Assembly: GCF_050920415.1 (NCBI RefSeq)
Contig: NZ_CP169309.1
From: Escherichia coli
Lineage (GTDB): Bacteria > Pseudomonadota > Gammaproteobacteria > Enterobacterales > Enterobacteriaceae
Reading direction: 5' to 3' (one strand)
Length of the DNA: 64,000 nucleotides
Below the pieces are notes generated by a model, which was given only the letters and a program-made list of their open reading frames with translations, was not told the DNA's origin and searched no databases. Shown here piece by piece: positions 45,900 through 46,015 of this stretch (within the stretch, counting starts at the first letter, position 1; each line of letters begins with the position of its first letter). Made by a program: the position numbers and the translations under genes.

Positions 45900-46015
45900 T
45901 TTTGCCGGATGCGGCGTAAACGCCTTATCCGGCCTACGGTTCGATGCGATTTGTAGGTCGGATAAGATGCGTCAGCATCGCATCCGACAATAAGTGCCGG
46001 ATGCGACCAACATTC
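45900..46015. repeat. REP/BIME repetitive extragenic palindromes
   Basis: gccggatgcggcgtaaacgccttatccggcctac and inverted partner gtaggtcggataagatgcgtcagcatcgcatccgac, plus a third partial copy. Confidence 0.8.

Follow-up and report, generated by a model that had tools for sequence, protein, structure and literature searches.

A REP/BIME element of one unit and a truncated REP in the spacer between the convergent genes ybhC and ybhJ of Escherichia coli

We analysed the spacer between ybhC and ybhJ within a 64,000-nt stretch of Escherichia coli DNA, referred to here as the window. The coding sequence of ybhC lies on the plus strand at 44604-45887 (427 codons in the ORF list) and ends in a TAA stop codon at 45885-45887, as given by the ORF list and by the RefSeq annotation of matching genomes. 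On the minus strand ybhJ occupies 46028-48289 (2262 nt annotated), with its stop codon at 46028-46030, according to the RefSeq annotation of identical sequence and the ORF list. The program-made ORF for ybhJ (46028-48313, minus strand; 761 codons with a GTG start) is 8 codons longer than RefSeq ybhJ, and the extra codons represent an upstream in-frame GTG only. Stop codons and RefSeq annotation agree that the repeat lies, as the initial annotation had placed it, between the convergent genes ybhC and ybhJ, whose intervening spacer measures 140 nt (45888-46027).

The spacer opens with 16 nt of unique sequence (45888-45903), the last base of which, 45903, is also the terminal base of the first REP. 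This element, REP1, is a y-type REP of 35 nt on the minus strand (45903-45937; GCCGGATGCGGCGTAAACGCCTTATCCGGCCTAC plus the preceding T), an 'iREP' when read on the plus strand. It is built from a 7-bp stem, an AA/GC mismatch, a 4-bp stem and a 4-nt loop, reading ..GGAT AA GGCG....CGCC GC ATCC.. on the minus strand, and its GTAG appears as CTAC at 45934-45937 of the plus strand. A linker of 15 nt (GGTTCGATGCGATTT, 45938-45952) separates this CTAC end from the GTAG end of REP2, a z2-like REP of 37 nt on the plus strand (45953-45989; GTAGGTCGGATAAGATGCGTCAGCATCGCATCCGACA; GTAG at 45953-45956) with a 7-bp stem, an AA/GC mismatch, a 5-bp stem and a 4-nt loop, reading ..GGAT AA GATGC....GCATC GC ATCC... 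REP2 is followed by a 6-nt linker, ATAAGT (45990-45995), which lies between the non-GTAG ends of successive REPs and leads into a truncated REP of 11 nt on the minus strand (45996-46006; GCCGGATGCGA). The latter is the outer arm of a further y REP whose partner arm is absent, and is a direct repeat of REP1 positions 45903-45913. The spacer closes with a non-REP tail of 21 nt on the plus strand (46007-46027; CCAACATTCACATGGCGCTTT), where a T-run at 46025-46029 overlaps the ybhJ stop codon. The first REP stem begins 16 nt past the ybhC stop, and 39 nt separate the ybhJ stop codon from the full REP nearest to it.

REPs of E. coli are described as imperfect palindromes of 30-40 nt with GTAG in front and a conserved AA-GC bulge, and are divided into three types, y of 35 nt, z1 of 29 nt and z2 of 37 nt, while a BIME consists of a REP and an inverted REP with a linker between them (PMC3333891, PMC8266576). 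REP1 and REP2 are both imperfect palindromes of this length that form a stem-loop, with GTAG 5′ of the stem (PMC3333891) and the AA-GC mismatch (PMC8266576), and they are placed in inverse orientation, minus and plus, so that CTAC and GTAG face each other across 15 nt in the arrangement of a BIME. The site is extragenic, between two stop codons, and has many dispersed copies. Alignment to the REP consensus, which the initial annotation had proposed as the check on its REP palindrome cluster (BIME) at 45900-46015, gave an exact match of the 34-nt y consensus at 45904-45937 (0 mismatches); with the inverse REP pair and the multicopy nature of the sequence this bears out the identification, and 'cluster' is an apt term once it is refined to two complete REPs and a truncated half, and not three complete REPs. 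REP1 is moreover identical at 35 of 35 positions to the y REP of K-12 REP325 and can be aligned with the first of the two hairpins in Rfam naRNA4. Allowing up to 3 mismatches, the y consensus had no further match in the 64-kb window and none in 100 dinucleotide-shuffled sequences, and a loose REP-motif scan of the window found no REP outside this spacer.

A 401-nt query across the spacer had matches in 5425 of the 5426 complete E. coli genomes, with a median of at least 29 matching places in a genome, which identifies a dispersed repeat family; the y REP alone is present in tens of copies in each E. coli genome, in keeping with the earlier description of a typical E. coli repeat. The predicted folds are highly stable. 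The REP1 hairpin has a folding energy of -21.3 kcal/mol (z -3.9) and that of REP2 -19.9 kcal/mol (z -5.9), while the spacer as a whole reaches -65.7 kcal/mol on the plus strand (z = -6.7) and -60.7 kcal/mol on the minus strand (z = -5.6), and in each of these four cases none of 200 shuffles was as stable. That the structure in the spacer is a chromosomal REP/BIME of the Escherichia type, comprising one unit (a canonical y REP and an inverse z2-like REP) and then a truncated y REP, we regard as virtually certain.

Two kinds of BIME were considered for its classification. BIME-1 combines y and z1 with a long L linker containing an IHF site and occurs singly, and BIME-2 combines y and z2, has short linkers and is repeated in tandem to a strain-dependent copy number (PMC3333891, PMC8266576). 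As reference REPs we utilized the y and z2 of K-12 REP325, which has alternating Z2/Y units, together with those flanking rayT. In ungapped alignment REP2 shares 78 % identity with the z2 of REP325 and with that of the rayT REPtron, compared with 76 % with y in a gapped alignment and 70 % with the 29-30-nt z1 form. It is in register with the z2 hairpin of naRNA4, an Rfam model derived from REP325, and several pairs are changed on both sides and still paired. The best scores against this model (RF02564) were 41.9 and 32.6 bits, below the gathering threshold of 59.5 bits, and each match spans only one of the two hairpins of the model. These sub-threshold scores indicate kinship to the REP family and not membership as an naRNA4 gene. 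The other Rfam matches were to microRNA precursors and were set aside as meaningless, reflecting the long hairpin only.

BIME-1 was rejected as a class for this element: the linker of 15 nt is too short and contains no WATCAANNNNTTR IHF core at up to 1 mismatch, the control element RIP1 having a 1-mismatch site. Tandem number at this locus varies among strains, as in BIME-2, the window itself carrying one full unit and a half. Our provisional assignment is to BIME-2, with a variant z2; the original scheme might class such an element as 'atypical'. A solitary REP identical to REP2 at 37 of 37 positions lies between ysdE and tisB, just past the 3′ end of the tisB toxin gene (positions 1201-1237 of the locus retrieved from E. 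coli O157:H7 strain 2-6-2). Given this identical copy, REP2 is best seen as a minor REP subtype, forming a small subfamily at no fewer than two loci, and not as a local oddity. In the RefSeq copy of K-12 consulted (NC_000913.3), repeat_region features for REP or RIP elements are absent throughout, including the yaaX-yaaA spacer where a BIME-1 is visible, so that missing annotation at ybhC/ybhJ is uninformative.

The window also contains a lambda-like prophage. The lambda att core GCTTTTTTATACTAA occurs exactly at 5123-5137 and at 44543-44557 (attL), 39.4 kb apart, and these cores bracket the prophage at attB between ybhB and ybhC. An int ORF at 43399-44469 (356 codons), 99.3 % identical to lambda int, adjoins the second att core. 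Over the integrase region, identity is 99.3 % to phage lambda and 99.6 % to phage Huey. In the prophage-free strain MFDS1022581 the genes bioA-ybhB-ybhC-ybhJ are contiguous. Homology to this strain resumes at about 44540, and from there the two sequences are 100 % identical over ybhC, the whole spacer and no less than 1.6 kb of ybhJ. This identity to a strain without the prophage marks the BIME as host DNA, unrelated to the lambda-like prophage 1.35 kb away, and it is old host DNA, occupying the same site in several Escherichia species. The earlier attribution of the repeat to the host and not to the prophage is thereby confirmed, although its placement 'next to the prophage junction' was loose, as 1346 nt and the whole of ybhC separate the attL core from the first REP downstream of it. 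The spacer holds a standard host repeat, and it would be wrong to read it as part of the prophage, as an sRNA gene or as something new in regulation.

Alleles of this spacer differ in the number of units. One unit and the half REP in a spacer of 140 nt, as in the window, were found in 2074 of 5426 complete E. coli genomes (38 %). Approximately 2785 (51 %) have two units and the half REP in 233 nt, as in K-12, with possibly more units in some; this count was obtained by subtracting the 2074 from the 4859 genomes with either a one-unit or a multi-unit allele. The second K-12 unit carries stem-breaking substitutions. A further 508-527 of the 5426 genomes (about 10 %) have a REP-less spacer of 69 nt flanked by ordinary E. 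coli sequence, exemplified by E. coli SWHEFF_58, in which positions 1639-1707 of the retrieved locus are the same site as 45888-46027 of the window. Two strong terminator-like hairpins that lead into T-runs are present in this REP-less spacer; they are crossed and lie on opposite strands, one for each convergent gene (-13.7 and -15.5 kcal/mol; z about -6 and -5).

To survey relatives we searched a single genome of each species for a degenerate pattern of the ybhC C-terminus, which yielded 54 loci, E. fergusonii not being among them. All Escherichia representatives in the scan have the same y and z2-like BIME with the same truncated end, which is found in K-12, E. albertii, E. whittamii and others. 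The number of units is five in E. albertii, one in E. whittamii, two in Escherichia sp. E1V33 and one in each of two further 'E. coli' species clusters. In E. albertii NBRC 107761 the spacer after ybhC is 513 nt long and consists of five full units and the half REP, several of the units having stem-weakening substitutions. The presence of the same BIME with varying numbers of units across Escherichia implies that it is old at ybhC/ybhJ within the genus and that unit number is labile. Variation in the number of BIMEs per locus is documented behaviour of BIME-2 (PMC3333891). In most other genera ybhJ is absent at this position and an intrinsic terminator follows ybhC. Certain Citrobacter species with convergent ybhC and ybhJ have in the spacer either a REP type of their own (GTAGGCCCGGTAAGCG...) or a single bidirectional terminator; the Citrobacter-type REPs make it likely that REPs occupied the ybhC/ybhJ spacer independently in this other genus.

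The tail of the BIME alleles (ATTCACATGGCGCTTTTT) looks like that part of the REP-less ybhC terminator (ATTTCATAGCGCCTTTTTTT) which comprises its loop, 3′ arm and T-run. This likeness hints that the BIME may have replaced part of such a terminator. A terminator scan called no intrinsic terminator for ybhC in the window spacer. On the ybhJ strand there was a single weak terminator-like call at the half REP with a 6-bp stem, which is no more than shuffles give, and no G+C-rich hairpin directly followed by a T-run, as in a Rho-independent terminator, was found. A hybrid terminator formed by the half REP and a remnant GGCGC-TTTTT was also considered and rejected (-8.3 kcal/mol, z = -0.8; 43 of 200 shuffles fold as well). 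This chance-level hairpin is the one that precedes the spacer's sole T-run, at 46025-46029.

We compared 13 orthologous units to assess conservation of structure. They are 94 % identical and no pair was found changed on both sides; the linker between REP1 and REP2 is largely conserved at 15-16 nt with several variable positions in all of these aligned units. Separate REP hairpins are 97.7 % paired across the 13 units and one long inter-REP hairpin 94.6 %, an about equal fit. With identity this high and no compensatory change, conservation of the orthologous units is uninformative on structure and neither supports nor refutes a selected RNA structure.

With regard to origin, the literature leads us to infer that RayT/TnpA(REP) acts on REPs in the form of single-stranded hairpins, which it recognises, cleaves and joins again. 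RayT needs GTAG and the stem bulge (PMC3333891; PMC8266576), and a substrate is cleaved and transferred at CT dinucleotides beside such a REP. Its determinants, GTAG, the bulge and a REP with an iREP, are all present in this element, and rayT is absent from the window. Such activity on REPs would account for their spread and probably for part of the change in unit number, while the number of approximately 93-nt units would also shift by recombination or slippage between tandem units.

With regard to function, the element may act at the RNA level as a two-way 3′-UTR hairpin, combining attenuation of read-through with protection of the mRNA 3′ end, a role we judge to have an even chance of being correct. 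Both convergent transcripts would enter the element, and its hairpins would serve as a leaky, partly Rho-dependent attenuator in both directions, would block 3′-to-5′ exonucleases and would stand in for the two intrinsic terminators of the REP-less allele. REPs have been described as partly Rho-dependent terminators and as mRNA stabilisers, and between convergent genes they are accompanied by higher expression of both genes (bioRxiv 10.64898/2026.03.23.713779). The very stable structure predicted on both strands is in favour of this RNA role, as is the finding of at most one weak, chance-level terminator call in this allele compared with two strong terminators in the REP-less one; against it stands that about 10 % of E. 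coli lack the element. In full texts and in the supplements of three papers we found no transcript, 3′-end or half-life data for ybhC/ybhJ, which feature there only as differential-expression rows for an unrelated REP325 deletion. Our best explanation overall, in which identity, origin and function are taken together, is one we hold with high confidence; the identity of only 78 % between REP2 and canonical z2 counts against it.

The element may alternatively have no selected function and be a tolerated remnant of RayT-driven spread whose unit number drifts by slippage, which we consider somewhat unlikely. Drift of this kind fits the unfixed unit number, which runs between 0 and 5 in close relatives, the stem-breaking substitutions in the second K-12 unit, the lack of covariation among orthologous units, the truncated REP at the end of the element and the poorly characterised, accessory-type nature of ybhC and ybhJ. 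However the same site and the same ends have been kept across Escherichia including E. albertii, the stems are still 98 % paired, and the REP2 hairpin has been preserved relative to canonical z2 by compensated substitutions; the dedicated terminators of the REP-less allele suggest in addition that some 3′-end structure is needed here. Another reading concerns translation, the REP hairpin close to the stop codon blocking the terminating ribosome on ybhC, with tmRNA rescue and mRNA decay leading to down-regulation. A REP near the stop reportedly blocks the ribosome and triggers tmRNA-dependent rescue (Liang, Rudd and Deutscher, Mol Cell 2015), the required distance reportedly being within about 15 nt. 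The first REP stem of the spacer is close to this limit with respect to ybhC but, at 16 nt, lies just outside it, and the ybhJ stop is as far as 39 nt from the first full REP; such down-regulation would be highly improbable.

The element could also act at the DNA level as a BIME-2 type binding and cleavage site for DNA gyrase that removes positive supercoils between the convergent units, which would be compatible with an RNA role and which we think distinctly unlikely. Its composition of y and a z2-like REP and its short linkers resemble those of BIME-2, positive supercoiling is expected between convergent genes, and gyrase cleavage sites mapped genome-wide are over-represented in a subset of BIME-2, mostly at y REPs (PMC6379681). 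In that study however cleavage was limited to some BIME-2, for the most part long elements of several units such as those of sucC-sucB and tldD-yhdP, whereas the allele here is a single unit whose REP2 departs from canonical z2; the BIME-2 signal rose when transcription was blocked, which speaks against a transcription-coupled role, and ybhC and ybhJ are absent from the part of its supplementary tables that was searched (PMC6379681).

Returning to the two-way 3′-UTR hairpin, a more specific proposal, rather doubtful in our estimation, would be that in the allelic series of 0, 1, 2 and 5 units the REP array took over 3′-end formation from terminators and that unit number tunes read-through and the mRNA level of both genes. 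If true, natural isolates or swapped alleles would directly test the disputed role of REPs as terminators or stabilisers. This series, with terminators in the empty allele, could provide a ready-made natural experiment on REPs between convergent genes. The element itself is of an already known kind, and the new details, namely the two and a half REPs, the z2 variant and the series of unit numbers, are modest.

Among known systems, bidirectional or crossed intrinsic terminators, two of which are present in the REP-less allele, occupy the same position as the element and probably perform part of the same job. They differ in that neither gene here is faced by a G+C-rich hairpin with a direct T-run. 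BIME-1 or RIP elements, such as RIP1 between yaaX and yaaA, likewise consist of a single unit of two inverse REPs, one of them y, in an intergenic spacer. They have however a conserved L linker of about 34 nt with an IHF site, compared with 15 nt and no IHF core at ybhC/ybhJ, and are not amplified in tandem, whereas the ybhC/ybhJ unit is amplified in other strains. The element also has much in common with BIME-2, including REP325 between yjdM and yjdN, the source of naRNA4, and the BIMEs flanking rayT. In these, as here, y and z2-type REPs alternate in inverse orientation with short linkers, both REPs have GTAG and the AA/GC bulge, and units of approximately 90-110 nt are arranged in tandem in numbers that differ among strains. 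REP325 has six units compared with one full unit here, and linkers of about 17 and 11 nt compared with 15 and 6 nt, the linker sequences differing also. In contrast to canonical z2, the outer stem of REP2 is a y-like CGGAT and three of its pairs carry compensated changes, and the ybhC/ybhJ element, unlike REP325, terminates in a truncated REP.
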